From Patescibacteria group bacterium (lineage in GTDB: Bacteria; Patescibacteriota; Minisyncoccia; JAHISW01; Tagabacteraceae), in NCBI GenBank assembly GCA_042577045.1, contig JBHPEK010000001.1:15173-79172 (forward strand): a stretch of DNA of 64,000 bases, in the 5' to 3' direction. Position numbers and translations under genes: made by a program. Below are positions 1,525 through 62,311 of this stretch, piece after piece; the stretch's first letter is position 1; the number at the start of each line of letters is the position of its first letter. The notes beneath the pieces were generated by a model. It was given only the letters and a program-made list of their open reading frames with translations. It made no database searches and was not told where the DNA came from.

Positions 1525-1547
1525 AACAGATACCAAAAAAGTTCAAT

Positions 1548-1570
1548 CCATCGACATCGGATGTCGGGAT
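1548..1570. repeat. TCSGA-centred element, class A (CCATCGACA arms), degenerate right arm
   Basis: ccatcgacaTCGGAtgtcgggat. Confidence 0.7.
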
Positions 1571-6423: not shown

Positions 6424-8256
6424 ATGACTCAAAAAATTATAAATTTTTCCGCATTTGTTATTTTAGCCACCATGTTTGTGTTGTTAATTTCTTCTGCATG
6501 GAACGACTCAGCCACTATGGACGAATTGGCCCATATCCCCGCTGGATACTCTTACTTAACAGAGCAAGATTTTAGAATAAACCCAGAACACCCGCCTCTT
6601 ATCAAAGACCTCTCTGCAATTCCCCTTTTATTTCTAGATTTAAATTTCCCAGTAAACGACCCTTCTTGGTCCACGGCTATTAATGGCCAGTGGGACTTGG
6701 GGAGGATATTCATATATGAGTCGGGTAACAATGCCGACGATATTATAAAATTCTCGCGTCTCCCTATTATGTTTCTAGCAATTTTATTTGGCTGGATGCT
6801 TTTTAGATGGGCAAAAAGTTTGTATGGAGATAAAGTTGCCATTCTCACTCTTTTCCTTTTTGCCTTTTCTCCTACATTTCTGGCTCACTCTAGATATGTC
6901 ACCACGGACTTAGCGGCAGCCTTTGGCTTCTTTCTTGGTTTGGCGGCCTTCATTAATTGGATACAGAAAAATACCACAAAAAGCCTAGTTATCTGTGGTG
7001 TTGCTTTTGGAGTAGCTCAACTTCTTAAATTCTCTTTAGTAATTCTAGGGCCTATTTATATTATCTTGGGAGCACTTTGGGTGTTTTTAGTAAATTACGA
7101 AAAGTTTAGTTGGAGAAAATTTATCAAAGAGCAATTTATAATGCTTGGTAAAATTATCTTAATTGCTTTAATCGGTTTTGTAATTATTATCCCTTTCTAT
7201 ATATTCCACGTTTGGAACTATCCAGTAGAGCGACAAGTAAATGATATTTCGTTCATTTTGCACACCTTTAAGGTGCGATTTCTAGCTGACGCAGTTATTT
7301 GGCTTGCTGGATCAAGCTTAGTTGCGGTGCGTGCTTTGGCTGAATATTTGTTTGGAATTTTAATGGTAATGCAAAGAGCGGCCGGTGGAAACAATGTATT
7401 CCTTCTGGGAGAAGTCGCCAACAAAGGGTGGCCAATCTATTTCCCTCTTTTGTATTTGCTGAAAGAACATCTTGCTCTGCATATTCTAACTTTAATAGGA
7501 ATAATTTTTGGAATAAACAATATCAGAAAAAGTAATGAAAAAACTTTCAAAAATTTCTGTGGATGGTTACGAGAAAATTTTGCACTTACTGCTAGTTTTA
7601 TTTTTCTGGGAATTTATTGGTTACAAGCCATTACCAGTCCACTAAACATTGGAGTGCGACATGTTCTGCCCACCTTCCCTTTTATTTACCTGATTGTTTC
7701 TCGACAGACTATTCGGTGGATTAAGGAGTACGGCGTGGAAACGCCAAAAACTATCTTTGGATGGCTAAAAGAATTCTACCGGCTTTATATTCGACCAATT
7801 AAGCGCGGTTTACTTCTTATTCTTCTTTTAATTTGGATGCTTGCTTCGACAATTTTAAACTTCCCACACTATCTGTCCTACTTTAACGAGTTGGTTGCAG
7901 GTACGCCAAACGGATACAAAATTGCCGTTGACTCAAACTACGACTGGGGACAAGACCTATTGAGACTTCGTGACTATATTGAAGAAAACAACATAGAAAA
8001 CATTGCCATAGATTATTTTGGAGGTGGACACCCAAAATACTACCTAGGCGACAAAGCCCACATCTGGCACTCCAACTCTGGACACCCAATGGATCAGGGT
8101 ATTGAATGGCTAGCAGTGTCCCTAACATTCTTTCAAGAATCACGAGCAGAACCCGTGAAGGGATTTGTACGATTGCCAGCAGACACATTCCCTTGGCTAG
8201 ATGGTGCAGACTTTGTTACCAGAGCAGGGACCTCTATATTTATATATAGATTCTAA
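6424..8256 (+). CDS. GT-C glycosyltransferase (family 39, ArnT/PMT-like)
   Basis: N-terminal MDELAHIPAGYSY motif region, many TM helices, C-terminal soluble domain. Confidence 0.6.
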   Translation: MTQKIINFSAFVILATMFVLLISSAWNDSATMDELAHIPAGYSYLTEQDFRINPEHPPLIKDLSAIPLLFLDLNFPVNDPSWSTAINGQWDLGRIFIYESGNNADDIIKFSRLPIMFLAILFGWMLFRWAKSLYGDKVAILTLFLFAFSPTFLAHSRYVTTDLAAAFGFFLGLAAFINWIQKNTTKSLVICGVAFGVAQLLKFSLVILGPIYIILGALWVFLVNYEKFSWRKFIKEQFIMLGKIILIALIGFVIIIPFYIFHVWNYPVERQVNDISFILHTFKVRFLADAVIWLAGSSLVAVRALAEYLFGILMVMQRAAGGNNVFLLGEVANKGWPIYFPLLYLLKEHLALHILTLIGIIFGINNIRKSNEKTFKNFCGWLRENFALTASFIFLGIYWLQAITSPLNIGVRHVLPTFPFIYLIVSRQTIRWIKEYGVETPKTIFGWLKEFYRLYIRPIKRGLLLILLLIWMLASTILNFPHYLSYFNELVAGTPNGYKIAVDSNYDWGQDLLRLRDYIEENNIENIAIDYFGGGHPKYYLGDKAHIWHSNSGHPMDQGIEWLAVSLTFFQESRAEPVKGFVRLPADTFPWLDGADFVTRAGTSIFIYRF

Positions 8257-8276: not shown

Positions 8277-8320
8277 TAAACTTAGCAAATACTTACGATC
8301 GTAAGTATTTGCTAAGTTTA
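8277..8320. repeat. perfect 44-nt even palindrome centred on ACGATCGT (family P)
   Basis: taaacttagcaaatacttacga|tcgtaagtatttgctaagttta. Confidence 0.9.
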
Positions 8321-11985: not shown

Positions 11986-12012
11986 ATTATATATGGTAAC
12001 AAATCAAAAAAA

Positions 12013-12028
12013 CCCACACAAGTGTGGG
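12013..12028 (-). terminator. terminator of 12044-12472; duplicated at 13136-13151
   Basis: cccaca/tgtggg stem with a T-run on the minus strand. Confidence 0.6.
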
Positions 12029-12043
12029 TTTTTGGTTTTCTTT

Positions 12044-12472
12044 TTATGGGCAAGTGCCAAACCTTAAAGGGAAACTAACGCAATCTAACTTCCCTTCTAA
12101 ATAATTGCAAACCATCTCCTTTACATAGCTTGCTAGGGGAATGGTAATAACTGCATCGCTGGTTGGAATAAGATAGAAATGTAAAACGGTAAAATCACGT
12201 TTTGTCTCCAAAAGACAGTACGACAGTACGTTGTCTCCTGGAACCACTTCTTTTTTCATAAAAAGCATTTCCGTTTCGTTTTCAAAAATTTTACACATCC
12301 CACGACTAGTGAGAACTTCTTCTATCGTTTTTGCGGGCTTTCTAAACTGCCCGAAAAAATAAAAGAACTCTCTCTTGTCTGTTTCATCATCCGGCAAACG
12401 GACTTTGAACAAGTAAGGAACCTTTTGCGTCTCGCCTACAATCTCTGGGTCTTTCATTGCCTTAAACTTCAT
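12044..12472 (-). CDS. hypothetical protein, FPLRFGTCP-terminus family, copy 1
   Basis: GGGAGG RBS before the ATG at 12472; paralog of 13167-13592. Confidence 0.65.
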   Translation of the reverse strand: MKFKAMKDPEIVGETQKVPYLFKVRLPDDETDKREFFYFFGQFRKPAKTIEEVLTSRGMCKIFENETEMLFMKKEVVPGDNVLSYCLLETKRDFTVLHFYLIPTSDAVITIPLASYVKEMVCNYLEGKLDCVSFPLRFGTCP

Positions 12473-12980
12473 TATTTTCCTCCCTTTCTTCAAGAAGTCT
12501 TGCCTCCTTGAGTTTAATTTCTTGTTTGTAAGTTTCAATTTCAGTAACTATTTTTTCTAAACTTGCCAGGTTGTATATCCTGTCTTTCCAACTAAGATAC
12601 TCCCCCAGCCATGTTTCTAGCTCAAAAGTATCTTTAGTTGTATTGGCCACTTTAATTAGGCCTCTTAGTTTTTTAGACATTGGAAAGTTTGGTGGAGTTA
12701 GTCTTTCAATTTCACGAAGCTTTTCAAAAGCATCTTTCATTATCCTCTCAAACTTTTGTTCAGGAAATTTTTCTTTCCACTGAATTGACTGGATAAGAGA
12801 CATGTAGCTAACAAACAAAATTACCGATATCAAAAAATTAGGCATAAACGACTTCACGGTGAGTAGAACAAAAATAACAAAAAAAAGAATGCTAACTAGA
12901 ATCAATGGCAACACTGCCCCCGGAAACTTACAGTAAAAACTTGCAAACAACGTTTTATGCCAGTTCAATTCTTTCTTCAT
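12462..12980 (-). CDS. membrane protein with C-terminal coiled coil
   Basis: Two TM helices; overlaps the downstream gene by 11 nt. Confidence 0.5.
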   Translation of the reverse strand: MKKELNWHKTLFASFYCKFPGAVLPLILVSILFFVIFVLLTVKSFMPNFLISVILFVSYMSLIQSIQWKEKFPEQKFERIMKDAFEKLREIERLTPPNFPMSKKLRGLIKVANTTKDTFELETWLGEYLSWKDRIYNLASLEKIVTEIETYKQEIKLKEARLLEEREENNEV

Positions 12981-13059: not shown

Positions 13060-13070
13060 CATATGTTTTT

Positions 13071-13095
13071 TCCATCGACATCCGATGTCGATGGA
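13071..13095. repeat. TCSGA-centred element, class A, perfect
   Basis: tccatcgacatc-c-gatgtcgatgga. Confidence 0.9.
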
Positions 13096-13135
13096 AATCT
13101 AAAAACTATCGGAAGAACAGTAAGCAATAAAAAAA

Positions 13136-13151
13136 CCCACACAAGTGTGGG
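13136..13151 (-). terminator. terminator of 13167-13592 (copy of 12013-12028)
   Basis: Identical cccacacaagtgtggg hairpin and flanks. Confidence 0.6.
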
Positions 13152-13166
13152 TTTTTGGTTTTCTTT

Positions 13167-13592
13167 TTACGGGCAAGTGCCAAATCTTAAAGGAAATTGA
13201 TGGCAGTCTAACTCTTCATCTAAGTGACTACAAACTGTACTCTGCACAAGATTTGCCAAATCACGTGTAATACAAGCGCCTCTCAACGGAATGAGATAGA
13301 AATGTGCCGTGGTAGACAGTTCTCCATTTTTTGCTTCCAAAAGACAAACCAACAAAACATTGTCTCCTGGTGTTTTCTCTTTTCTCATAAAAAGAATGTA
13401 ATCATCTTTTGAGAGGACTTTTCCTCCTCTCCGCTCAGCAATGATTCTGGCGACGGTTTCTGCATTTTCTGCAAACTGACCAAAAAAATAGAAAAGCTCT
13501 CTGGGATTATCTCCGACACACACCTTAAATAAATACGGATCCACCTCTCTTAGTATCTCTGGATTCTTCATTGCCTCTACGTTTGTTTCCAT
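13167..13592 (-). CDS. hypothetical protein, FPLRFGTCP-terminus family, copy 2
   Basis: GGGAGG RBS before the ATG at 13592; shares LFYFFGQF, PGDNVL, HFYLIP and FPLRFGTCP with copy 1. Confidence 0.65.
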   Translation of the reverse strand: METNVEAMKNPEILREVDPYLFKVCVGDNPRELFYFFGQFAENAETVARIIAERRGGKVLSKDDYILFMRKEKTPGDNVLLVCLLEAKNGELSTTAHFYLIPLRGACITRDLANLVQSTVCSHLDEELDCHQFPLRFGTCP

Positions 13593-13740
13593 TATTCCTC
13601 CCTCGGCCGTAGCCCGTCCTATGGGCGAGGCCCTCTTCAAAGTTATTTTCAAATATCAACTTGTAAGTAGATTGCCAGTTTCAAGTGATTTTGTCAACCA
13701 CAATTGAGTTGTCTCGATAATAAACATCGAGACTTGTTTA

Positions 13741-13767
13741 ATCCATCGACATCCGATGTCGATGGAT
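13741..13767. repeat. TCSGA-centred element, class A, perfect 27 nt
   Basis: atccatcgacatc-c-gatgtcgatggat, 12 nt downstream of the RAYT-1 stop. Confidence 0.9.
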
Positions 13768-13779
13768 CGATAAAAGCTA

Positions 13780-14493
13780 CTAATCTAAAACGATATCTCT
13801 TATCTTTTCTAAATCAATTTCAGACCACTCTCTCAAAAACTTCTCGTAGTCTTTCTTTCCCCTAAACTGATCTGTGATTATTTCTGTTCCGGATAAAATT
13901 AAATCTTCAAAATCGTCTTGTAGATAACTTTTCAAACTAGACCATGGGTATTTAATAAGTTCTTTCTTTTTTAAATTCCAACTTTTTAAATTCCCCCCTC
14001 TCCAGTCTTTGCTGTCAATAAAATCTAATGGGTTAAGATGGATATACAAAGAAAGATGAAGAAGATAATTATTTGAATCAATATGTTTTGCTTTAAAATT
14101 ACTTTCAAAAAGAGAACCTTTCCGTTCTTGTTTGGTGTTTATATATTTTGCAATTGAAATATTACTCTTACGAAGAAAAGTACTTATTCCACCCTCCGTT
14201 AATTCTTTTACCAAAAGGTGATAGTGATTCGGCATAATTGAATAAGCAACGACATCAACAAGTTTATCACCTCTCCATGCTATATCTACTGCTTTTCTTA
14301 AGCTTACATTTTTGTAATTTCTTAAATAATCAAACGCCTTACTTGATTCTGTTGAATTTGCCAACAAAAAACATTGAGTAAGTTTATTTGCATTCTCATA
14401 GTTCTCAAATTCCGGAATATTTAATATTGTTCTGCTGTAAACGTGATAATATTCTCCTGAAACAAATTGGTCTTTTCTTATCATAATATTCAT
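13780..14493 (-). CDS. HUH/Y1 tyrosine transposase, IS200/REP-associated (RAYT-like), copy 1
   Basis: MPNHYHLLV (HUH) and LYIHLNP (catalytic Tyr) about 60 aa apart. The longer ORF to 14607 only translates the upstream hairpin. Confidence 0.8.
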   Translation of the reverse strand: MNIMIRKDQFVSGEYYHVYSRTILNIPEFENYENANKLTQCFLLANSTESSKAFDYLRNYKNVSLRKAVDIAWRGDKLVDVVAYSIMPNHYHLLVKELTEGGISTFLRKSNISIAKYINTKQERKGSLFESNFKAKHIDSNNYLLHLSLYIHLNPLDFIDSKDWRGGNLKSWNLKKKELIKYPWSSLKSYLQDDFEDLILSGTEIITDQFRGKKDYEKFLREWSEIDLEKIRDIVLD

Positions 14494-14503
14494 AAGTCTA
14501 TCA

Positions 14504-14526
14504 CCATCGACATCGGAAGTCGATGG
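14504..14526. repeat. TCSGA-centred element, class A with a hybrid inner arm
   Basis: ccatcgacaTCGGAagtcgatgg; exact reverse complement of 15046-15068. Confidence 0.9.
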
Positions 14527-15045: not shown

Positions 15046-15068
15046 CCATCGACTTCCGATGTCGATGG
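15046..15068. repeat. TCSGA-centred element, class A hybrid (inverted copy of 14504-14526)
   Basis: ccatcgactTCCGAtgtcgatgg. Confidence 0.9.
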
Positions 15069-18344: not shown

Positions 18345-18380
18345 TTTAGCATTTACTTACGATCGTAAGTAAATGCTAAA
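18345..18380. repeat. perfect 36-nt palindrome centred on ACGATCGT (family P)
   Basis: tttagcatttacttacga|tcgtaagtaaatgctaaa. Confidence 0.9.
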
Positions 18381-18438: not shown

Positions 18439-18472
18439 TATACACTTACCAACGATCGTAGATAAGTGTATA
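18439..18472. repeat. family P palindrome (centre AACGATCGTA)
   Basis: tatacactta...taagtgtata arms. Confidence 0.75.
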
Positions 18473-19326: not shown

Positions 19327-20403
19327 CTAATAATCCAATGTTTCGGTTATGTGGTATAACCCATCGTAGTTTCTTCCTGCTCCCCAAAGTTTATAATATA
19401 AACGAGCCATATTAGTTTCCGACAGATTCAATTTTTTTCTCTCCTGATTTATCGCTTCCAGAAGTTTTCCAATAGCCAAAACAGTTGCCAGACGTATTTG
19501 AATCTCCAAAGGAAAATTTTCCTCTATCTCCTCTCCCATCGAAATTTTATTCCGCAGAAATGGAGAATATTTAAAAATCTCTAAAATATATAAAATTTTC
19601 GGTAAAACACAATCGGCAACGACACTTAGACTTTCAACGTCTTTGATTTGTGGTAATGTGTCGCTACTTTGCGCCCTGCCATAATATTCTAGAAGAAAAA
19701 GAAGTGCTTTTTTGTGAAATGGAAGCCAATTGTCATATCTGGTACGATCTAGACTACGTTTATCATAATATGCTCCTGGAAAATCTTCCACCAGACGCTC
19801 ACAAATGCCATTGCCACCATCAAAACACCTATAATTTGCCTCTTTAAAAAGATTCGCAAATTGACCATTATATTTAGAAATTAAAACCCTGGCAATGTTT
19901 TTCCAAATTTGCATTCGTTTTTCAAGCAAAGGTAAATTCGAATCAACATTAAAAATTTCTCTCATTTGACTAATTTTAATGCCGTGCAAAAAATAAGGAT
20001 CTAATAGTGGAATTTTCTTTTCTATAATGGCTCTGGTGACACAGGCAGACACTCCGAAAGCACCTGTCCATTTTTTATCTTTCCAATTCGTATAAAATTT
20101 TATACTTCCTATTCCTGGCTCTTTGTGATATGCATTTATTGCCGTAACAATTCCCAACCATTGAATAAAATCGTCGTCATCGTGTGGATACTGCACTGGC
20201 TCTCTCCACTCAGGAATTTCAAAATCTTCCTCTGCCCATTGCTTGGCACGCTCCTCAAGTTTCTGCTTTTTTATTTTGACATGTCCGACAGCAACAAATT
20301 CATCGTCTTCATAAAAGCTTCTTGGGCTCGGCAACTGGTAAACACCAGTTCTGTTTTTGCGATTTTCAAAATAGCCAACAACCTTCTCATACCACGGATT
20401 CAT
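19327..20403 (-). CDS. queuosine-salvage family protein (DUF2419/Qng1-like)
   Basis: Recalled family pattern: FHKKALLFL, VADCVLPKIL..., EIQIRLATVLA, C-terminal YHITETLDY. Confidence 0.6.
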   Translation of the reverse strand: MNPWYEKVVGYFENRKNRTGVYQLPSPRSFYEDDEFVAVGHVKIKKQKLEERAKQWAEEDFEIPEWREPVQYPHDDDDFIQWLGIVTAINAYHKEPGIGSIKFYTNWKDKKWTGAFGVSACVTRAIIEKKIPLLDPYFLHGIKISQMREIFNVDSNLPLLEKRMQIWKNIARVLISKYNGQFANLFKEANYRCFDGGNGICERLVEDFPGAYYDKRSLDRTRYDNWLPFHKKALLFLLEYYGRAQSSDTLPQIKDVESLSVVADCVLPKILYILEIFKYSPFLRNKISMGEEIEENFPLEIQIRLATVLAIGKLLEAINQERKKLNLSETNMARLYYKLWGAGRNYDGLYHITETLDY

Positions 20404-25650: not shown

Positions 25651-25697
25651 CCACCCTGGGCACAAAATAAAAATCAAATTAAAATTAAACAAAATAC

Positions 25698-25727
25698 ACC
25701 ACTTATCCACGATCGTAAGTAAGTGGT
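25698..25727. repeat. family P palindrome (centre ACGATCGT), imperfect
   Basis: accactta-tcc-acgatcgt-aag-taagtggt. Confidence 0.7.
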
Positions 25728-25871
25728 ATTATGTATTGTGTTTTTATTTCTAACATTGCTAGTTTGGAAAAACACCGAACTGAAAACTAAACCACTTATC
25801 CCGTGTTATGTGATGTAACCAGAAATTTCTTTTCCTTATTATTCTTTTTTCGATAATTTATTTTAGGGCTT

Positions 25872-26276: not shown

Positions 26277-26461
26277 ATGTATTTAGATTAAATTATTTCC
26301 TTACCAAGATAATATCACAAACCATAGTCGACCTTAAACAAATTGCCAAAAAAATCTTAAAAAAATAATAAAGAAATTTCTGGCTATTTCATATAGTTCG
26401 TTATTATACATACTATTACTTATACTGTATCACTTTGTAATTGGTGATACAATGTAATACA

Positions 26462-28498
26462 ATGTCAACCATGAAATATCACATCATCACATACGGCTGT
26501 GGAGCCAATCATGCCGATTCAGAAAGGATCGAAGCGAAGCTTCACGCACTTGGACACACAAAAGCCGCCAACAAGAAGGTGGCTAATTTGATAGTGATTA
26601 ATTCTTGCTCGGTGCGCAAGTCAGCTATGGATCGTCTTTATGCACAAATAAACAAACTAAAAACCAAGAAAAAGAAAGTAATTTTGGCAGGATGCATCTT
26701 AGAAAAAGACCTAAAAAATTTGAAAGACAAGGTAAGTGAAGTTTGGCACCCAGATGAGTACTTCGACTTAATGCCAATTTATGCAGATGAAGTTGGTGTG
26801 TCTGTCCCCATTATGACGGGGTGCAACAACTTTTGCACATATTGTGCTGTTCCTTACACCCGTGGACGAGAAAAATCTCGCCCAGCAAAAGATATTGTCG
26901 ATGAAATAAAGAAACTTGTGGCAAGCCCCGCCGGGCGGGATAAAAAAGAAATTTGGCTATTGGGTCAAAACGTAAACAGTTACCGATCTGGTAAAACAAA
27001 CTTTCCAAAACTTTTACAGAAAATAGATAAAATACCCGGCAAGTTTTGGGTTCGTTTTATTTCCCCACACCCAAAAGACTTCTCGATTGAATTAATAAAA
27101 ACAATTAAAAAATGTGAAAAAATTACTGAATACATAAACGTGCCTGTTCAGTCTGGAGACAATGAAATACTAAAAAGAATGAATAGAAACTACACGCGCG
27201 AACACTATATAAAACTTGTAAACAGAATTAGAAAAGAAATACCAGACGCATCTATATCCACAGATACCATTGTTGGCTTCCCTGGGGAAACAAAAAAACA
27301 ATTCTTGAATACTAAAGATTTATACAAAAAATTAAAATTTGATATGGCATTTCTAGCTGAATACTCTCCTCGTCCGGGGACTTTTTCAGCAATGATGATG
27401 AAAGACAACGTAAGCCATACCGAAAAAGAAAAACGAAAAAAAGAACTAAATGACATTTTAACCAAAACTGCACTAGAGAATAATAAAAAATATATTGGAA
27501 AAACAGTAGAAGTTTTAAATGGACGAACTCGCACCAATAAGCTGGTTACCCTACACGATACCGAGTATCGTGTAGGGCCAAGTGAATTCTTGAATGTAAA
27601 AATTACAGGAGCTGAATCTTGGAGACTAAAAGGGGAAATTGTTAAAAAAATAGTAGTTGTGCTTGGGCCTACTGCTTCTGGAAAAAGTGGTTTAGCTGTT
27701 GAGATAGCTCAAAAATTCCCTTCTGAGATTATCTCTGCAGATTCTAGACAAATTTACAAAGGAATGAATATCGGTAGTGGAAAAATAACAAAAAAGGAAA
27801 TGAAAGGAATAAAACATCATCTTCTTAACATAGTTAGCCCAAGAAAAATATATTCGGCAGGAGAATTCAAAAAAGAAGCTCAAAAATGTATCGAAGGAAT
27901 ATTGAAACAAGACAAAACGCCTATCATTTGTGGTGGAACAGGTTTTTATATCAACTCGCTTTTGGGTGGAAACATTGCCGAAGTAGAACCAGATTGGAAC
28001 TTGAGAAAAAAACTTGAGGAAAAAACTACAAAACAACTTTTTGGCCAACTGAAAAAACTAAAACCCCAAAGAGCAAAAAATATTGATTCCCAAAACAAAC
28101 GCCGACTAATACGGGCTATTGAAATAGCCAAATCTGCATCGAAGTCGGACTTCGACGCAATATCGAAGTCCGACTTCGATGTGTTGTATTTAGGAATTAA
28201 AAAAGACGGAGAAAAGCTAAAAAAAATAATTGATAAGAGGGTGGACGAAATGATTGAAGAAGGATTAGAAAAGGAAGTAAAAAAACTTGTTAAAAAATAT
28301 GGGTGGACGAAGACTTTAAAAAATACAATTGGATACCAAGAATGGAAAGAAGACAATTCAGAAGAAAAGATAAAGGCCCATTCACACCAATACGCAAAAA
28401 GACAAATAACTTGGTTTAAGAAATATGCACCGAAAACACACTGGCTTGGCAACAAAAAAGAAGCATTAAAATTAGTAAGAAACTTTTTAAAGAATTAA
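26462..28498 (+). CDS. miaB-miaA: fused MiaB (radical SAM methylthiotransferase) - MiaA (tRNA dimethylallyltransferase)
   Basis: UPF0004 N-domain, CNNFCTYC radical SAM cluster and TRAM domain, followed by a P-loop GPTASGKS and ADSRQIYKGMNIGS. Start is at 26462 or 26471. Confidence 0.85.
   Translation: MSTMKYHIITYGCGANHADSERIEAKLHALGHTKAANKKVANLIVINSCSVRKSAMDRLYAQINKLKTKKKKVILAGCILEKDLKNLKDKVSEVWHPDEYFDLMPIYADEVGVSVPIMTGCNNFCTYCAVPYTRGREKSRPAKDIVDEIKKLVASPAGRDKKEIWLLGQNVNSYRSGKTNFPKLLQKIDKIPGKFWVRFISPHPKDFSIELIKTIKKCEKITEYINVPVQSGDNEILKRMNRNYTREHYIKLVNRIRKEIPDASISTDTIVGFPGETKKQFLNTKDLYKKLKFDMAFLAEYSPRPGTFSAMMMKDNVSHTEKEKRKKELNDILTKTALENNKKYIGKTVEVLNGRTRTNKLVTLHDTEYRVGPSEFLNVKITGAESWRLKGEIVKKIVVVLGPTASGKSGLAVEIAQKFPSEIISADSRQIYKGMNIGSGKITKKEMKGIKHHLLNIVSPRKIYSAGEFKKEAQKCIEGILKQDKTPIICGGTGFYINSLLGGNIAEVEPDWNLRKKLEEKTTKQLFGQLKKLKPQRAKNIDSQNKRRLIRAIEIAKSASKSDFDAISKSDFDVLYLGIKKDGEKLKKIIDKRVDEMIEEGLEKEVKKLVKKYGWTKTLKNTIGYQEWKEDNSEEKIKAHSHQYAKRQITWFKKYAPKTHWLGNKKEALKLVRNFLKN
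28136..28158. repeat. TCSGA-centred element, class D, inside the miaA part (in frame)
   Basis: gcatcgaagtc-g-gacttcgacgc. Confidence 0.8.
28160..28182. repeat. TCSGA-centred element, class D, inverted partner, in frame
   Basis: atatcgaagtc-c-gacttcgatgt; with 28136-28158 it encodes SKSDFDAISKSDFD. Confidence 0.8.
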
Positions 28499-35372: not shown

Positions 35373-35421
35373 ATCTGTGTACTGAGAGAGATGTTGTCTC
35401 TCTCAGGAGCTTCCAACAGAT
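35373..35421. repeat. composite palindrome: class B outer arms with nested CTGAGAGAGA inner arms
   Basis: atctgtgtactgagagagatgttgtctctctcaggagcttccaacagat; 6 nt downstream of the RAYT-2 stop. Confidence 0.8.
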
Positions 35422-35427
35422 ACCAAA

Positions 35428-36081
35428 TTATTCTATTATGAACTCTTTTATGTCTTCGAACCTGCTCTTACTTTTGGTTTTGCAGCTTTTTAGAAATTCT
35501 TCATATTCGTCGTAATTTTTTAAAGGAGTCCATTTGTATTCTTCAAGAAATTTTTTTGCCTTACGCCAATCTTTTAAGCCCTCCTCTTTCCACCTAGGCT
35601 CAAAAAGATCTAGCGGGTTTAGATAAATATATTGTTTTAAATAATTTAAATATTCATCTTTATCTATTAGAACTGCCTTGAACTTTCCCTGAAACAAAAC
35701 TCCACTTCTCTCATATTTTTGATTAAAATAATTAGTGTAGCCAGTTCCCAGTTTTTGCATAAAACTGGAAATTCCGCCATCTTCCAATTGTTCAAGAATT
35801 AAATGAAAATGATTAGGCATTAAACAAGAGCCATAAAATTTAACTACGGACTCTCTGTCCTCTTTTTTTACTATGTGGGAAGTCGGACTTCCCACAGATA
35901 CCGCTCCTTCGCTAACACTTATACGACGAAACAGATTAATAGAAGAGTTCTTATCATTAAAATCTCTTAAGCTAAAAAGGAAGCGATGGTAGTCTTTGTC
36001 GTCCATAAAAACCTTACGTTTGTCTGTCCCACGGTTAAAAACGTGATAAAAATGGTTATTTGCAAATTGAGGTTTTTTCAT
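35428..36081 (-). CDS. HUH/Y1 tyrosine transposase, IS200/RAYT-like, copy 2
   Basis: MPNHFHLIL (HUH), QYIYLNP (Tyr). Start is at 36081 (MKKPQF...) or 36108. Confidence 0.8.
   Translation of the reverse strand: MKKPQFANNHFYHVFNRGTDKRKVFMDDKDYHRFLFSLRDFNDKNSSINLFRRISVSEGAVSVGSPTSHIVKKEDRESVVKFYGSCLMPNHFHLILEQLEDGGISSFMQKLGTGYTNYFNQKYERSGVLFQGKFKAVLIDKDEYLNYLKQYIYLNPLDLFEPRWKEEGLKDWRKAKKFLEEYKWTPLKNYDEYEEFLKSCKTKSKSRFEDIKEFIIE
35874..35896. repeat. class B element inside the RAYT-2 CDS (in frame, encodes VGSPTSH)
   Basis: tgtgggaagtc-g-gacttcccaca followed by gatacc. Confidence 0.85.
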
Positions 36082-36107
36082 TACTTTTATTATATATACA
36101 TATTTCA

Positions 36108-36134
36108 TCTGTGGGAAGTCCGACTTCCCACAGA
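36108..36134. repeat. TCSGA-centred element, class B, perfect 27 nt
   Basis: tctgtgggaagtc-c-gacttcccacaga. Confidence 0.9.
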
Positions 36135-36580: not shown

Positions 36581-37801
36581 TTATTTTATGGAAGAAATAT
36601 TTTTTAATTTGTTAATAATATCTGGAAGAACTTTCAAAACATAATCTATGTCTTCTTTTGTGTTTTCCTTTCCCAAGCTGAACCGAACCGAACCATGCAC
36701 GTGCTCATGGCATCGGCCAATCGCTTTTATAACGTGTGAGGGTTCTAAACTATCCGAACTACACGCCGAACCGGTTGAGGAGGCTATTCCTTTGGCATCA
36801 AGGTATAAAATAATAGATTCGCCCTCTACTCCATGAAAAGAAATATTTATATTATTTGGAAGTCGGGCGTCTAAAGATCCGTTAATTTTGGAGTCGGGAA
36901 AAGTTTTTGAAAGATTTTCTATAAAATAATTACGCAATTCAATAAGACGAGCAGATTCTTTTTCTCTTTCCTTTTGGGCAACCTCTAGCGCCTCAGCAAA
37001 GCCAACAATGGCAGGAATATTTTCTGTTCCTGGACGAAGACCAGATTCTTGCCCACCACCGTAAAGTATTGGCTCAATTTTTAATCCTCTCTTTTTGTAA
37101 AGGCACCCAACTCCTTTGGGCCCATAAATTTTAGAACCGTTTAAAGACATTAGATCTATTCCCAACTTGGCAACATTTAAATCTAGAAAGGACGGGGTTT
37201 GAATAGCGTCGGTATGAAAATATGGTGTTTCAACTCCGTGTTCTTTTCGATGAGCACGAATTATTTTAGCAATCCTAGAGATTGGTTGAATGGTTCCTAT
37301 TTCATTATTGGCATACATAATAGAAACCAAGATCGTCTCTTTTCGAAGTTCTTTTTTTAATTCTTCTAAATCCACCAGTCCATCTTTATCTACATCTAAA
37401 TAACTAACTTCGAATCCCTCTTTCTCAAGTTTCTCGCAAGCATGAAGGACCGCGTGATGTTCTATACTGGAAGTAATGATATGTGGGAAGTTGGACTTCG
37501 CACGCTTGTTGTGGGAAGTCCTGAGAGAGATCTGATCTCTCTCAGTGCCCACAGAACCAAAAATGGCCAGATTGTCACTCTCAGTACCACTAGAAGTAAA
37601 AATAATTTCGTCTGGACGTGCACTCAAAATTTCGGACACTTTATGTCGAGCGTCAGAGATGGCTTTTTTGGCAACTCGACCCTCCTCATAAATTGAAGAG
37701 GCATTTCCAAAATCCACAGACCAAAAAGGCTCCATTGCCTTTTTAACAGCTGGATCTAGTTGGGTAGTTGCTGCATGATCTAAATATATTCTTTTCATCA
37801 T
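36581..37801 (-). CDS. nifS: cysteine desulfurase (NifS/IscS) carrying an in-frame repeat insertion
   Basis: GTESDN, PLP Lys region SLNGSKIYGPKG, catalytic SSTGSACSS. Confidence 0.9.
   Translation of the reverse strand: MMKRIYLDHAATTQLDPAVKKAMEPFWSVDFGNASSIYEEGRVAKKAISDARHKVSEILSARPDEIIFTSSGTESDNLAIFGSVGTERDQISLRTSHNKRAKSNFPHIITSSIEHHAVLHACEKLEKEGFEVSYLDVDKDGLVDLEELKKELRKETILVSIMYANNEIGTIQPISRIAKIIRAHRKEHGVETPYFHTDAIQTPSFLDLNVAKLGIDLMSLNGSKIYGPKGVGCLYKKRGLKIEPILYGGGQESGLRPGTENIPAIVGFAEALEVAQKEREKESARLIELRNYFIENLSKTFPDSKINGSLDARLPNNINISFHGVEGESIILYLDAKGIASSTGSACSSDSLEPSHVIKAIGRCHEHVHGSVRFSLGKENTKEDIDYVLKVLPDIINKLKNISSIK
37482..37504. repeat. degenerate class B element inside nifS
   Basis: tgtgggaagtTggacttcGcacG. 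Confidence 0.7.
37510..37553. repeat. composite class B/inner-arm element inside nifS
   Basis: tgtgggaagtcctgagagagatctgatctctctcagtgcccaca. Confidence 0.85.
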
Positions 37802-41512: not shown

Positions 41513-41539
41513 TCTGTGGGAAGTCCGACTTCCCACAGA
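41513..41539. repeat. TCSGA-centred element, class B, perfect
   Basis: tctgtgggaagtc-c-gacttcccacaga followed by tacaaaaaa. Confidence 0.9.
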
Positions 41540-46883: not shown

Positions 46884-46931
46884 ATCTGTGGGAAGTCCTG
46901 AGAGAGATAGTATCTCTCTCAGGACACAGAT
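46884..46931. repeat. composite class B/inner-arm palindrome
   Basis: atctgtgggaagtcctgagagagatagtatctctctcaggacacagat followed by accaaaaaa. Confidence 0.85.
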
Positions 46932-47008: not shown

Positions 47009-47031
47009 ACGTCGACGTCCGACGTCGACGT
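47009..47031. repeat. TCSGA-centred element, class C, perfect
   Basis: acgtcgacgtc-c-gacgtcgacgt, preceded by tttcaact. Confidence 0.9.
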
Positions 47032-47036
47032 TTATA

Positions 47037-47056
47037 CGACATCGGATGTCGATGGA
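47037..47056. repeat. class A element with truncated left arm
   Basis: cgacaTCGGAtgtcgatgga. Confidence 0.7.
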
Positions 47057-56171: not shown

Positions 56172-56196
56172 TGCGTCGACGTCCGACGTCGACGCA
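56172..56196. repeat. TCSGA-centred element, class C, perfect
   Basis: tgcgtcgacgtc-c-gacgtcgacgca. Confidence 0.9.
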
Positions 56197-57378: not shown

Positions 57379-57405
57379 CTGCGTCGACGTCCGACGTCGA
57401 CGCAG
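57379..57405. repeat. TCSGA-centred element, class C, perfect 27 nt
   Basis: ctgcgtcgacgtc-c-gacgtcgacgcag. Confidence 0.9.
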
Positions 57406-60377: not shown

Positions 60378-60488
60378 ATGTATTTATCTAAACGTGGCAA
60401 AAAATTAAACAGGGCTGTTTGGATTTTCATCAGTATTTTGGCAATCATCGGAATGGTGGGTTACCTCATTGTACCACTTTTCTACTAA
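60378..60488 (+). CDS. possible 36-aa membrane peptide
   Basis: TATAAT at 60363-60368; MYLSKRGKKLNRAVWIFISILAIIGMVGYLIVPLFY. Confidence 0.35.
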   Translation: MYLSKRGKKLNRAVWIFISILAIIGMVGYLIVPLFY

Positions 60489-62311
60489 TCATTTCCTCCA
60501 CCCTGAATCATCTTCAAGAACACGTCGTGGGGAACATCTACCCGGCCGTGTTTGCTTAATTTTTTCTTCCCCTTTTTCTGCTTCTCTCGCACTTTCATTT
60601 TTCTAGTTATGTCTCCACCATATAGACCAGCGGTGACATCTTTTTTAAGAGCAGATATTTTTTGAGCAGCAATAATGCGCCCATTTGCTTTCACTTGGAT
60701 TTTAATCACAAACAGCGCTCTTGGCAAAAACCTCTTTAATTTCTCGGCTAAATTTTTTGCATCCCTTTGCATATCTTTTTTGGCAATCATTTTTGAAAAT
60801 GCTGGAATGACCTCTTCATTTAAAAGAACTTCTAAGCGAGTAAGTTCCCCCCTTCTATCTTCCATAATTTGATAACTAAAAGACGCATATCCAGACGTAG
60901 CACTTTTTAATTCTTCAAAAAAATTGTTCATCATTTCGCGTAGGGGCATTTGGGCTTTTAAAACAAATCTCTTCTGCTCACCAAATCCTTCTGTATCTCC
61001 CACCATGGCATCTCGTCTTTTTAAGACTTGCATAACTTCTCCCAACTTATCAAAAGGAGTTATAATTTTTACTTCAACCCATGGTTCGAGAATTTTATCT
61101 ATTTGAAAATGTTCAGGAAAAAGCGCTGCTGAATAAATCTCTTTTTTATTGCCATTTTTATCTTCTATTTTGTAAACCACGCTGGGAGTAGCAACCACAA
61201 CAGCAAGCTTAAACTCACGCTTTAGGCGTTCCACAATAATTTCAAGATGGAGCATTCCTAAAAAACCACAACGAAATCCACGCCCCAAAACACCACTTTC
61301 CTCTTCTTCAAAATCTAAAGAGCTGTCTGAAAGCTTCAATCTTTCTAACGACTGTTTTAAGTCCGTAAAATCGTCTTGAGACTCTGGGTATATACTAGCC
61401 CAAACAACTGGCGCGGGTTGTTTATATCCCTTTAGCGCCCCCAAGGTACTACCTTTGGAAAGAAGTGTATCTCCAACAGAGGCAACACCTGCCTCTTTAA
61501 CATTCGTTACAACATATCCAATTTCTCCTGTTTTTAGATCTGGAGTTTCTAGGGGGGTGGGGCTAAGAATGCCAATTTCCCCAACTGTAAAATTTAGACC
61601 AGCTTGATGTAAAAATACCTTATCACCTTTTTTGATTTGGCCATCTGTGCATCGTACATATAAAATAATACCTTTGTGAGGTGAATACTCGAAATCAAAA
61701 ACCAAACCCCTGAATCCACACGACACCGAGTTTCGTGTATCTACACGAAACTCGGTGTCGTGTGGGTGTGGAGGTGGGATACGAGAAATAATTTCTTTGA
61801 GCAGGGCCTCTACGCCTTCCCCTGTTTTAGCTGATACTTCTAAAATATCTTTTTCCTCGCAAGACAAAATTTCCAAAATTTCTTGTTTCGTCTCTGGGGT
61901 CTGTGCATTCGGACTATCTATCTTGTTAATAACGGGAACTATGGTTAACCCCAACTCTTTTGCCATTTCTAAGTTACTAATTGTTTGCGCTTGAACTCCT
62001 TGAGTGGCATCTACTAAAAGTACTGCCCCCTCAACAGCCTTAAGAGAACGCGACACCTCGTAAGAAAAATCTATATGTCCTGGAGTATCAATCAAATTGA
62101 GTTGATACCCCTCAAAACTCATTCGGACTGGTTGCATTTTTATGGTAATACCTCTTTCTCTCTCTAACTCCATTTGATCTAAAACTTGTTCTTTCATTTT
62201 TCTCTTCTCTATGGTCGCAGTCAATTCCAAGAACCGATCAGCCAAAGTTGACTTACCGTGGTCAATATGCGCAATAATACTAAAATTTCTAATATTGTTT
62301 TTTTCTTGCAT
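60485..62311 (-). CDS. lepA: translation elongation factor 4 (LepA) carrying an in-frame palindrome
   Basis: G-domain AHIDHGKST, DTPGH, NKID; LepA-specific C-terminus. Confidence 0.95.
   Translation of the reverse strand: MQEKNNIRNFSIIAHIDHGKSTLADRFLELTATIEKRKMKEQVLDQMELERERGITIKMQPVRMSFEGYQLNLIDTPGHIDFSYEVSRSLKAVEGAVLLVDATQGVQAQTISNLEMAKELGLTIVPVINKIDSPNAQTPETKQEILEILSCEEKDILEVSAKTGEGVEALLKEIISRIPPPHPHDTEFRVDTRNSVSCGFRGLVFDFEYSPHKGIILYVRCTDGQIKKGDKVFLHQAGLNFTVGEIGILSPTPLETPDLKTGEIGYVVTNVKEAGVASVGDTLLSKGSTLGALKGYKQPAPVVWASIYPESQDDFTDLKQSLERLKLSDSSLDFEEEESGVLGRGFRCGFLGMLHLEIIVERLKREFKLAVVVATPSVVYKIEDKNGNKKEIYSAALFPEHFQIDKILEPWVEVKIITPFDKLGEVMQVLKRRDAMVGDTEGFGEQKRFVLKAQMPLREMMNNFFEELKSATSGYASFSYQIMEDRRGELTRLEVLLNEEVIPAFSKMIAKKDMQRDAKNLAEKLKRFLPRALFVIKIQVKANGRIIAAQKISALKKDVTAGLYGGDITRKMKVREKQKKGKKKLSKHGRVDVPHDVFLKMIQGGGND
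61716..61765. repeat. perfect 22-bp-arm inverted repeat inside lepA
   Basis: ccacacgacaccgagtttcgtg-tatcta-cacgaaactcggtgtcgtgtgg. Confidence 0.9.

Follow-up and report, generated by a model that had tools for sequence, protein, structure and literature searches.

A probable REPtron-like unit in Patescibacteria, formed by a Y1 HUH gene and two flanking hairpins

Introduction

Is a tyrosine transposase gene that sits between two matching hairpins an insertion sequence (IS), part of a repetitive extragenic palindrome (REP) system, or a regulatory unit that moves no DNA? The question is raised by a stretch of 64,000 nucleotides (nt) from a Patescibacteria genome, hereafter the window, in which a gene at 13780–14493 encodes a putative Y1 transposase of the HUH type and is flanked on either side by a hairpin of the kind referred to as class A. 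An initial annotation of the window had read this locus as a REP-associated tyrosine transposase (RAYT) with its cognate REP population, the two hairpins resembling the left and right ends of IS200-type elements. To our knowledge, work on REP/RAYT systems has been confined almost entirely to Proteobacteria and Cyanobacteria, and the literature searched yielded no link between such systems and Patescibacteria.

The explanation we favour, with a probability of roughly 0.7, is a REPtron-like unit: a vertically inherited gene for a Y1 HUH endonuclease/transferase acting on single-stranded DNA (ssDNA), bracketed by two private hairpins. Judged from sequence comparison and a structural model, the unit is best described as a Patescibacteria-wide branch of TnpA-Y1 class 2 with subclass 2.1 motifs and near-perfect palindromes that lack a GTAG head and share a CGA-N9-TCG core. 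Such gene-plus-hairpin units are common across Patescibacteria, whose streamlined genomes tolerate several of them, and no description of them was found in the literature searched.

The flanking hairpins are cognate to the Y1 gene

The locus was compared with those of 29 Patescibacteria relatives (49–75% identity), giving a set of 30 loci. A hairpin is present on both sides of the gene in all 30, about 10–45 nt upstream of the ATG at one end and overlapping the stop codon, or at most 20 nt from it, at the other. When 58 of these family hairpins were aligned, the CGA-N9-TCG core was found at a fixed distance from the apex in every one, and the three pairs concerned (C-G, G-C and A-T) never vary. 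Each of the remaining six of the nine stem pairs shows double (compensatory) changes, amounting to 133 cells compared to 41 in shuffles, and 92% of cells are paired overall compared to 23–43% when the partner is slid.

Within a locus the upstream and downstream hairpins are identical or reverse-complement identical, with 0–1 mismatch in most loci, whereas hairpins from different loci differ at about 7 of 19 nt. In a neighbour-joining tree, proteins from different genomes cluster according to hairpin apex type (ATCGTAAGT, AACCGTT, GTCCGAC, CCCGTAGGG and ACACCGGACTT being among the groups), with the paralogs of a single genome placed in different clades and associated with different hairpins. 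A Mantel test of protein against hairpin gave r = 0.26, a value reached in 21 of 2000 permutations. The conserved position, the match between flanks and the co-variation with the protein across the 30 loci together support the notion that the flanking hairpins are cognate to the Y1 gene. Furthermore, the three invariant and six co-varying pairs amount to a natural specificity table for hairpin reading by Y1 HUH enzymes, which could find use in the engineering of HUH tags and ssDNA tools.

The two flanking hairpins are inverted relative to each other at 13 of the 30 loci and direct at the other 17, and the orientation differs even between close relatives (locus L010 compared to L016, and L020 compared to L033). 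Hence, the inverted arrangement is not a constant of the family.

The family is large, with 694 clusters at 90% identity in an indexed search and, at 50% identity, 9,525 clusters (E up to 1e-3) or 1,991 (E up to 1e-10). Among GTDB species representatives 417 loci were confirmed, and the best 80 of these belong nearly all to Patescibacteria/Paceibacteria. Several genomes contain 2–4 diverged copies of the gene. Some relatives also carry orphan hairpin copies and inverted doublets 24 nt apart; REPIN-like doublets (paired inverted REPs) with this spacing lie away from Y1 genes at 7382/7406 in L066 and at 19803/19827 in L023.

Class A hairpins cluster around the gene

Both spacings given in the initial annotation for the window, with one hairpin 12 nt after the stop codon and the other 10 nt before the start, were borne out, as was the opposite orientation of the two centres (TCCGA and TCGGA when read along one strand). 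The upstream copy differs from the downstream copy by one substitution (A>T). Folded as DNA, the downstream hairpin reaches -12.1 kcal/mol (z -4.9) and the upstream hairpin -8.2 kcal/mol (z -3.9). The pattern CCATCGAC-N7-GTCGATGG occurs exactly four times in the 64 kb (13072, 13743, 14504 and 15046), compared to 0.00 expected from shuffles. These four intact copies occupy four consecutive intergenic gaps, all within 2 kb of the Y1 gene.

All four orphan class A copies listed in the initial annotation were located. However, those at 13072 and 15046 adjoin the gene and are not remote, and the other two, at 1548 and 47034, have decayed: in both, 3 of the 14 arm bases in the 21-nt search pattern are mismatched.

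A role for class A hairpins as intrinsic terminators was considered and rejected, as they lack a T-run and separate terminators adjoin them. An Rfam scan of the window returned tRNAs only, and the hairpins correspond to no known RNA family. In a metagenome scan the exact class A hairpin was found in only 3 contigs, unrelated in DNA sequence, where it lies inside open reading frames (ORFs), a result that is uninformative on population size; no Y1 gene was seen near the hairpin in the fetched DNA of these 3 contigs. Two of the exact 23-mers are at 2829–2851 of the JGI contig L081 and 1253–1275 of L082, inside ORFs of 151 and 1347 amino acids (aa), respectively.

The gene product is a predicted Y1 HUH enzyme

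Translation of the minus strand recovered both motifs reported for the coding sequence (CDS) in the initial annotation, MPNHYHLLV (with HUH residues H90-Y-H92) and LYIHLNP (with Y150), in a product of 237 aa. The Pfam Y1_Tnp model (PF01797), proposed earlier as a check, matches residues 76–152 with 28.4 bits, above its cut-off of 23. Across 50 aligned sequences, down to 28% identity, residues H90, H92, Y150 and N154 never vary, and P155 is conserved in at least 90%. The alignments of the family start at the second Met (MIRKDQF), equivalent to Met4 of the window protein, suggesting the true start of the gene may be at 14484.

An AlphaFold (AF2) model generated with an alignment of 50 sequences as input is confident, with a predicted local distance difference test score (pLDDT) of 90.7 and a predicted template modelling score (pTM) of 0.87. 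The best fold matches in the PDB, as determined by Foldseek, are all Y1 transposases. The top match is 4ER8, the E. coli TnpA-REP with bound REP hairpin (E 9e-7, TM-score 0.66 by target), followed by IS608, ISDra2 and Sulfolobus Y1 transposases (E about 1e-4 for the IS608 and ISDra2 TnpA). A single-sequence search of the PDB with the Y1 protein returned nothing meaningful, and profile searches were marginal (ISDra2 at E 0.003, around the HUH strand; 4ER8 at E 0.011). The motifs and the modelled fold identify the product of 13780–14493 as a Y1 HUH enzyme.

Comparison with known systems

RAYT proteins are characterised by an NP(L/V)(R/K)xG motif and a conserved N-terminal Thr, and RAYT and REP coevolve (Nunvar 2010, PMC2817692). 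The window protein does not contain the NP[LV][RK]xG motif, reading NPLDFI instead, and has no Thr at the N-terminal position, where the strand reads YHVYSR (family consensus YHIYNRG/T). It also fails the NCBIfam equivalog model REP_Tyr_transpos (NF047646), with 40.1 bits against a cut-off of 80. A GTAG/GTGG head was found neither in the flanks of the six class A copies nor in those of the 58 family hairpins. The assignment to RAYTs made in the initial annotation therefore stands as regards the Y1 fold, the Y---NP motif and the cognate flanking hairpins, but not as regards the canonical hallmarks, i.e. the GT[AG]G head, NP[LV][RK]xG, the N-terminal Thr and the NCBIfam score.

The closest parallel is the E. 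coli REPtron (YafM, 4ER8), whose TnpA-REP binds and cleaves REPs solely in single-stranded form (Ton-Hoang 2012, PMC3333891). The Patescibacteria unit resembles it in the Y1 HUH fold, for which it is the best structural match, in the Y---NP motif, and in having the gene's own hairpins on both sides of it, near the stop codon. Also shared are the coevolution of protein and hairpin described by Nunvar 2010, the presence of diverged paralogs that each have a hairpin of their own, vertical transmission at a single locus (the position being not strictly fixed, as in L004 and L033) and occasional inverted doublets. In contrast, the Patescibacteria hairpins have neither a GT[AG]G head nor a stem bulge and are near-perfect palindromes with the CGA-N9-TCG core. 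The protein departs from the REPtron in the RAYT hallmarks listed above, as well as in a C-terminal extension that makes it about 70 aa longer. Further differences are the mixed orientation of the flanks, the small number of dispersed copies, and a host belonging to Patescibacteria rather than Proteobacteria.

By its motifs alone, the protein can be assigned to TnpA-Y1 subclass 2.1, which equals the Group 1 RAYTs of Bertels and the TIRYTs of Di Nocera 2013 and is defined by NH[YF]H, FQ/W[EQ], Y[IV]HLNP and an SS tail at a median length of 238 aa (PMC6006769 Table 1). The window protein has NHYH, FE (FQ in the second paralog), YIHLNP and a YPWSS tail at 237 aa. Members of subclass 2.1 are described as having either no REP-like structures in the vicinity or long terminal inverted repeats (GGGGWSAS), together with an HTH-like C-terminal domain (Bac_DnaA_C, HTH_23/28) (PMC6006769). 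The Patescibacteria loci differ in that all 30 have short cognate hairpins on either side of the gene, no GGGGWSAS repeats were seen at the loci examined, and no helix-turn-helix (HTH) domain was detected by Pfam in the window protein at E up to 1. In Patescibacteria, cognate hairpins do accompany proteins with subclass 2.1 motifs, which had been regarded as REP-less.

A looser likeness exists to Rickettsia palindromic elements and to the CGTC-tagged REPs, the latter with 8–9-bp stems, 4–5-nt loops, a CCA tail and no associated transposase (Di Nocera 2013, PMC3733652). These too are short palindromes in a reduced genome, some of them in frame within protein-coding genes, and the class B hairpins of the window begin with a CGTC-like foot. 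Unlike the CGTC REPs, the Patescibacteria hairpins have a cognate Y1 gene and a different architecture.

The upstream hairpin fills a promoter spacer in many relatives

A -10 box matching at least 5 of 6 positions follows the upstream hairpin in 27 of the 30 loci, mostly 5–9 nt before the ATG. In 15 of the 30, a TTG (-35) lies 6 nt before the CGA, so that the hairpin makes up the 17-nt promoter spacer, as in the layout TTGAAT-CGACAACCGTTGTCGAT-TATAAT-N6-ATG. With the spacer filled by the hairpin and the -10 box this close to the ATG, the gene is probably expressed as a leaderless transcript and autoregulated through the hairpin.

Inheritance and proposed mechanism

In L003, an ortholog with 69% aa identity is located between DprA and SerRS, as in the window, and the neighbouring genes are 63–76% identical. 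The hairpins of L003 (ATTTTACTCGAAGCGTCGCTTCGAGTAAAAT) are on both flanks unrelated to class A beyond the core. Both flanks thus appear to have changed in concert at what is apparently one orthologous site, which points to a homogenising process acting on the flanks.

In the mechanism we propose for the REPtron-like unit, the enzyme would bind the hairpin extruded on ssDNA, e.g. on the lagging-strand template, with the invariant CGA/TCG pairs and the variable pairs together serving as its specificity code. Cutting and rejoining would then take place nearby, through a 5'-phosphotyrosine on Y150. Such activity could keep the two flanking copies homogenised and occasionally flip the loop, and may now and then give rise to new copies, single or in doublets, in neighbouring gaps, at distant intergenic sites or in frame inside genes. 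Binding at the TTG-N17-TATAAT spacer hairpin, 5–9 nt before the ATG in most relatives, would autoregulate the leaderless transcript.

Several observations weigh against this explanation. Dispersed copies are few, both in the window and in the roughly 20 kb around the relatives: the window contains two extra intact copies, which adjoin the gene, and two decayed ones, and most relatives have just the two flanking cognate copies in about 20 kb. The initial annotation therefore overstates the case for a dispersed cognate REP population. No guide tetranucleotide or cleavage motif was seen to be conserved next to the hairpins beyond the promoter-like TTG and TATAAT, and the upstream region of the window itself is without a canonical TTG/TATAAT, its best -10 being TAGACT (TGATAGACT) with 4 of 6 matches. 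In L004 and L033 DprA adjoins SerRS and the gene is elsewhere, a shift of position that is compatible with some mobility of the whole unit and suggests that it is not immobile over long times. Finally, covariation with dyad symmetry would be expected just as much if a dimer bound a double-stranded palindromic operator.

A more far-reaching version, which we consider unlikely, is a Patescibacteria-wide, multi-paralog system of private addresses. Each Y1 HUH enzyme would maintain its own hairpin both as a promoter spacer for autoregulation and as a mark of the gene boundary, and would write copies into intergenic DNA as well as, in frame, into such essential genes as lepA, miaB-miaA and iscS. 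If true, active ssDNA editing and cassette shuffling would be shaping ultra-small genomes, and the published view of subclass 2.1 as lacking hairpin substrates would be reversed.

Alternative explanations

It is clearly unlikely that the locus is an autonomous IS200/IS605-type IS, with the hairpins as left and right ends and the whole 0.8-kb unit transposing. The unit is compact, with hairpins at 0–20 nt from the stop and 10–20 nt from the start, and it resembles the IS200/IS605 TnpA systems (IS608, ISDra2; 2VJV, 2XM3) in HUH/Tyr chemistry, deduced here from motifs, in subterminal hairpins beside the gene, and in the weak profile and Foldseek matches given above. The 17 loci with direct hairpins, as in IS608, the 2–4 copies per genome and the shifted gene in L004 and L033 are likewise what such an element would produce. 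However, copies within one genome are old paralogs (31–75% aa identity) with differing hairpins, and near-identical copies, which typify IS200/IS605, were not seen: the second paralog in the window is 31% identical and the paralog P0002 72%. The unit therefore does not behave as an active IS. The protein has the class 2 tyrosine motif Y---NP where IS200 has Y---Q (PMC6006769 Table 1), and a length of 237 aa compared to about 150 aa for IS200 TnpA; the tnpB that often accompanies these elements is missing, with no TnpB-like domains among the neighbours. The L003 ortholog occupies the same site with a divergence like that of housekeeping genes, and the two ends are inverted in the window. The likeness to IS200 left and right ends drawn in the initial annotation is hence weak.

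Less likely still, the palindromes might be double-stranded operators or promoter elements, the protein being a domesticated DNA-binding regulator, or having some other housekeeping role on ssDNA, with no movement of DNA and with dispersed copies as extra regulatory sites. This explanation can draw on the upstream palindrome within the -35/-10 spacer of many relatives, on the window class A copies beside promoter-like sites, on the low copy numbers, and on the non-transposition roles suggested for subclass 2.1 proteins (PMC6006769). On the other hand, thousands of relatives show no variation in the catalytic HUH and Tyr residues, an argument that nuclease chemistry has been retained. A regulator would leave unexplained the identical copy after the stop codon, the loop flipping between close relatives (L010 and L016, L020 and L033) and the in-frame copies in lepA, miaA and the CDS of the second paralog.

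Very improbable is a third possibility, that the hairpins are recombination sites bounding small captured gene cassettes in the manner of integron attC sites, handled by the Y1 HUH enzyme: class A hairpins do lie in four consecutive intergenic gaps around ORFs of 126, 161, 172 and 164 aa that have no Pfam family, and L003 has the enzyme gene alone between DprA and SerRS, but in L001 and L003 hairpins do not bound the homologs of the 126-aa ORF, the 161- and 164-aa ORFs look like a local tandem duplication, no hairpin separates the 172- and 164-aa ORFs, and such arrays are rare in relatives.

Other features of the window

Table 1. Y1 genes and hairpins of the 64-kb window.
Feature	Position	Strand	Description
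Y1 HUH gene (TnpA-Y1 class 2, RAYT-like)	13780..14493	-	237 aa; HUH = H90/H92; predicted nucleophile Y150 in YIHLNP
Downstream cognate hairpin, class A	13741..13767		ATCCATCGACAT-CCG-ATGTCGATGGAT; 27 nt, 12-bp stem, 3-nt CCG loop; 12 nt past stop
Upstream cognate hairpin, class A variant	14504..14526		CCATCGAC-ATCGGAA-GTCGATGG; 8-bp stem, 7-nt loop; 10 nt ahead of annotated ATG
Extra intact class A copy	13069..13097		In the next gap, flanked by the ORFs of 172 and 161 aa; adjoins a bidirectional terminator and a promoter-like TTGACA-N17-TAGTAT
Extra class A copy, same variant as upstream one	15046..15068		In the gap that separates dprA from the 126-aa ORF
Decayed class A copy	1547..1569		Right arm mutated; follows a terminator, with a class B hairpin 25 nt away
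Decayed class A copy	47034..47056		Left arm mutated; abuts a class B hairpin, then TTTAAAAACAAAAAACCCC terminator context as at the 1548 copy
Second, different hairpin	13711..13733		GTCTCGAT-N7-ATCGAGAC, CGA-N9-TCG core; just beyond the downstream class A copy
Second paralog	35428..36108	-	31% identity to the 13780–14493 product; Pfam Y1_Tnp 36.1 bits
Class B hairpin	56172..56196		TGCGTCGACGTCCGACGTCGACGCA; CGA-N9-TCG core; other copies 1492–1524, 47009–47031, 57379–57405

The window (37% GC) contains 43 perfect hairpins with a stem of at least 9 bp, compared to 2–5 in shuffles, and these fall into several classes. The second paralog is associated with a class D hairpin, TCTGTGGGAAGTCCGACTTCCCACAGA, which is located upstream of the gene at 36108–36134 and in frame within its CDS at 35874–35896; orphan copies at 41513 and 63018 bring class D to four in the window. 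The internal copy translates as V-G-S-P-T-S-H, and relatives read V-G-x-P-x-S-H at the same place, a conservation which suggests that the internal hairpin is ancient and co-varying. In being intragenic, it is reminiscent of the intragenic REPs of TnpA-Y1 subclass 2.4 (Quentin 2018). Downstream of the second paralog, at 35382–35425, the expected class D hairpin is cut to half (ATCTGTTGGAAGCTCC) and followed by a class E hairpin. The latter, CTGAGAGAGA-N5-TCTCTCTCAG, is also found at 37521, inside a class-V aminotransferase gene, and at 46895.

For class B, with its four copies, no cognate gene is present within the window, and P0002 is a candidate. A protein identical to the 13780–14493 product is on record, annotated as 'transposase', on a contig of 88,130 bp, a length also recorded for the contig of P0002. 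At 1492–1569 and 47009–47056, a class B hairpin is found with a decayed class A hairpin ahead of the TTTAAAAACAAAAAACCCC terminator context; this composite, present at two loci, resembles a bacterial interspersed mosaic element (BIME).

The L003 locus has none of the four small ORFs (126, 161, 172 and 164 aa) found between the local class A copies of the window. The products of 12008–12538 (164 aa) and 13131–13652 (161 aa) are 46% identical, both end in FPLRFGTCP, and each ORF is followed by the same bidirectional terminator, AAAAACCCACACAAGTGTGGGTTTTT. This pair looks like a local tandem duplication beside the Y1 gene, with the terminator carried along.

A separate family of AT-rich palindromes, unrelated to the CGA-N9-TCG hairpins, is centred on ACGATCGT (e.g. 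TAAACTTAGCAAATACTTACGA and TCGTAAGTATTTGCTAAGTTTA as its two halves) and found at 8277–8320, 18345–18380, 18439–18472 and 25676–25749.

Two further genes contain hairpins. The ORF at 26441–28498 joins a MiaB-like radical-SAM enzyme to MiaA (IPPT), with hairpins at 27549–27577 and 28137–28181; one is at the MiaB/MiaA junction, and a REPIN-like inverted doublet (CATCGAAGTCGGACTTCGA and TCGAAGTCCGACTTCGATG) lies inside the MiaA part. In lepA (60485–62311), a 50-nt double hairpin with 24-bp arms is located in frame at 61716–61765. Within the LepA/EF4 protein it sits between the GTPase domain (aa 6–180) and domain 2 (from aa 214), and resembles Rickettsia palindromic elements.

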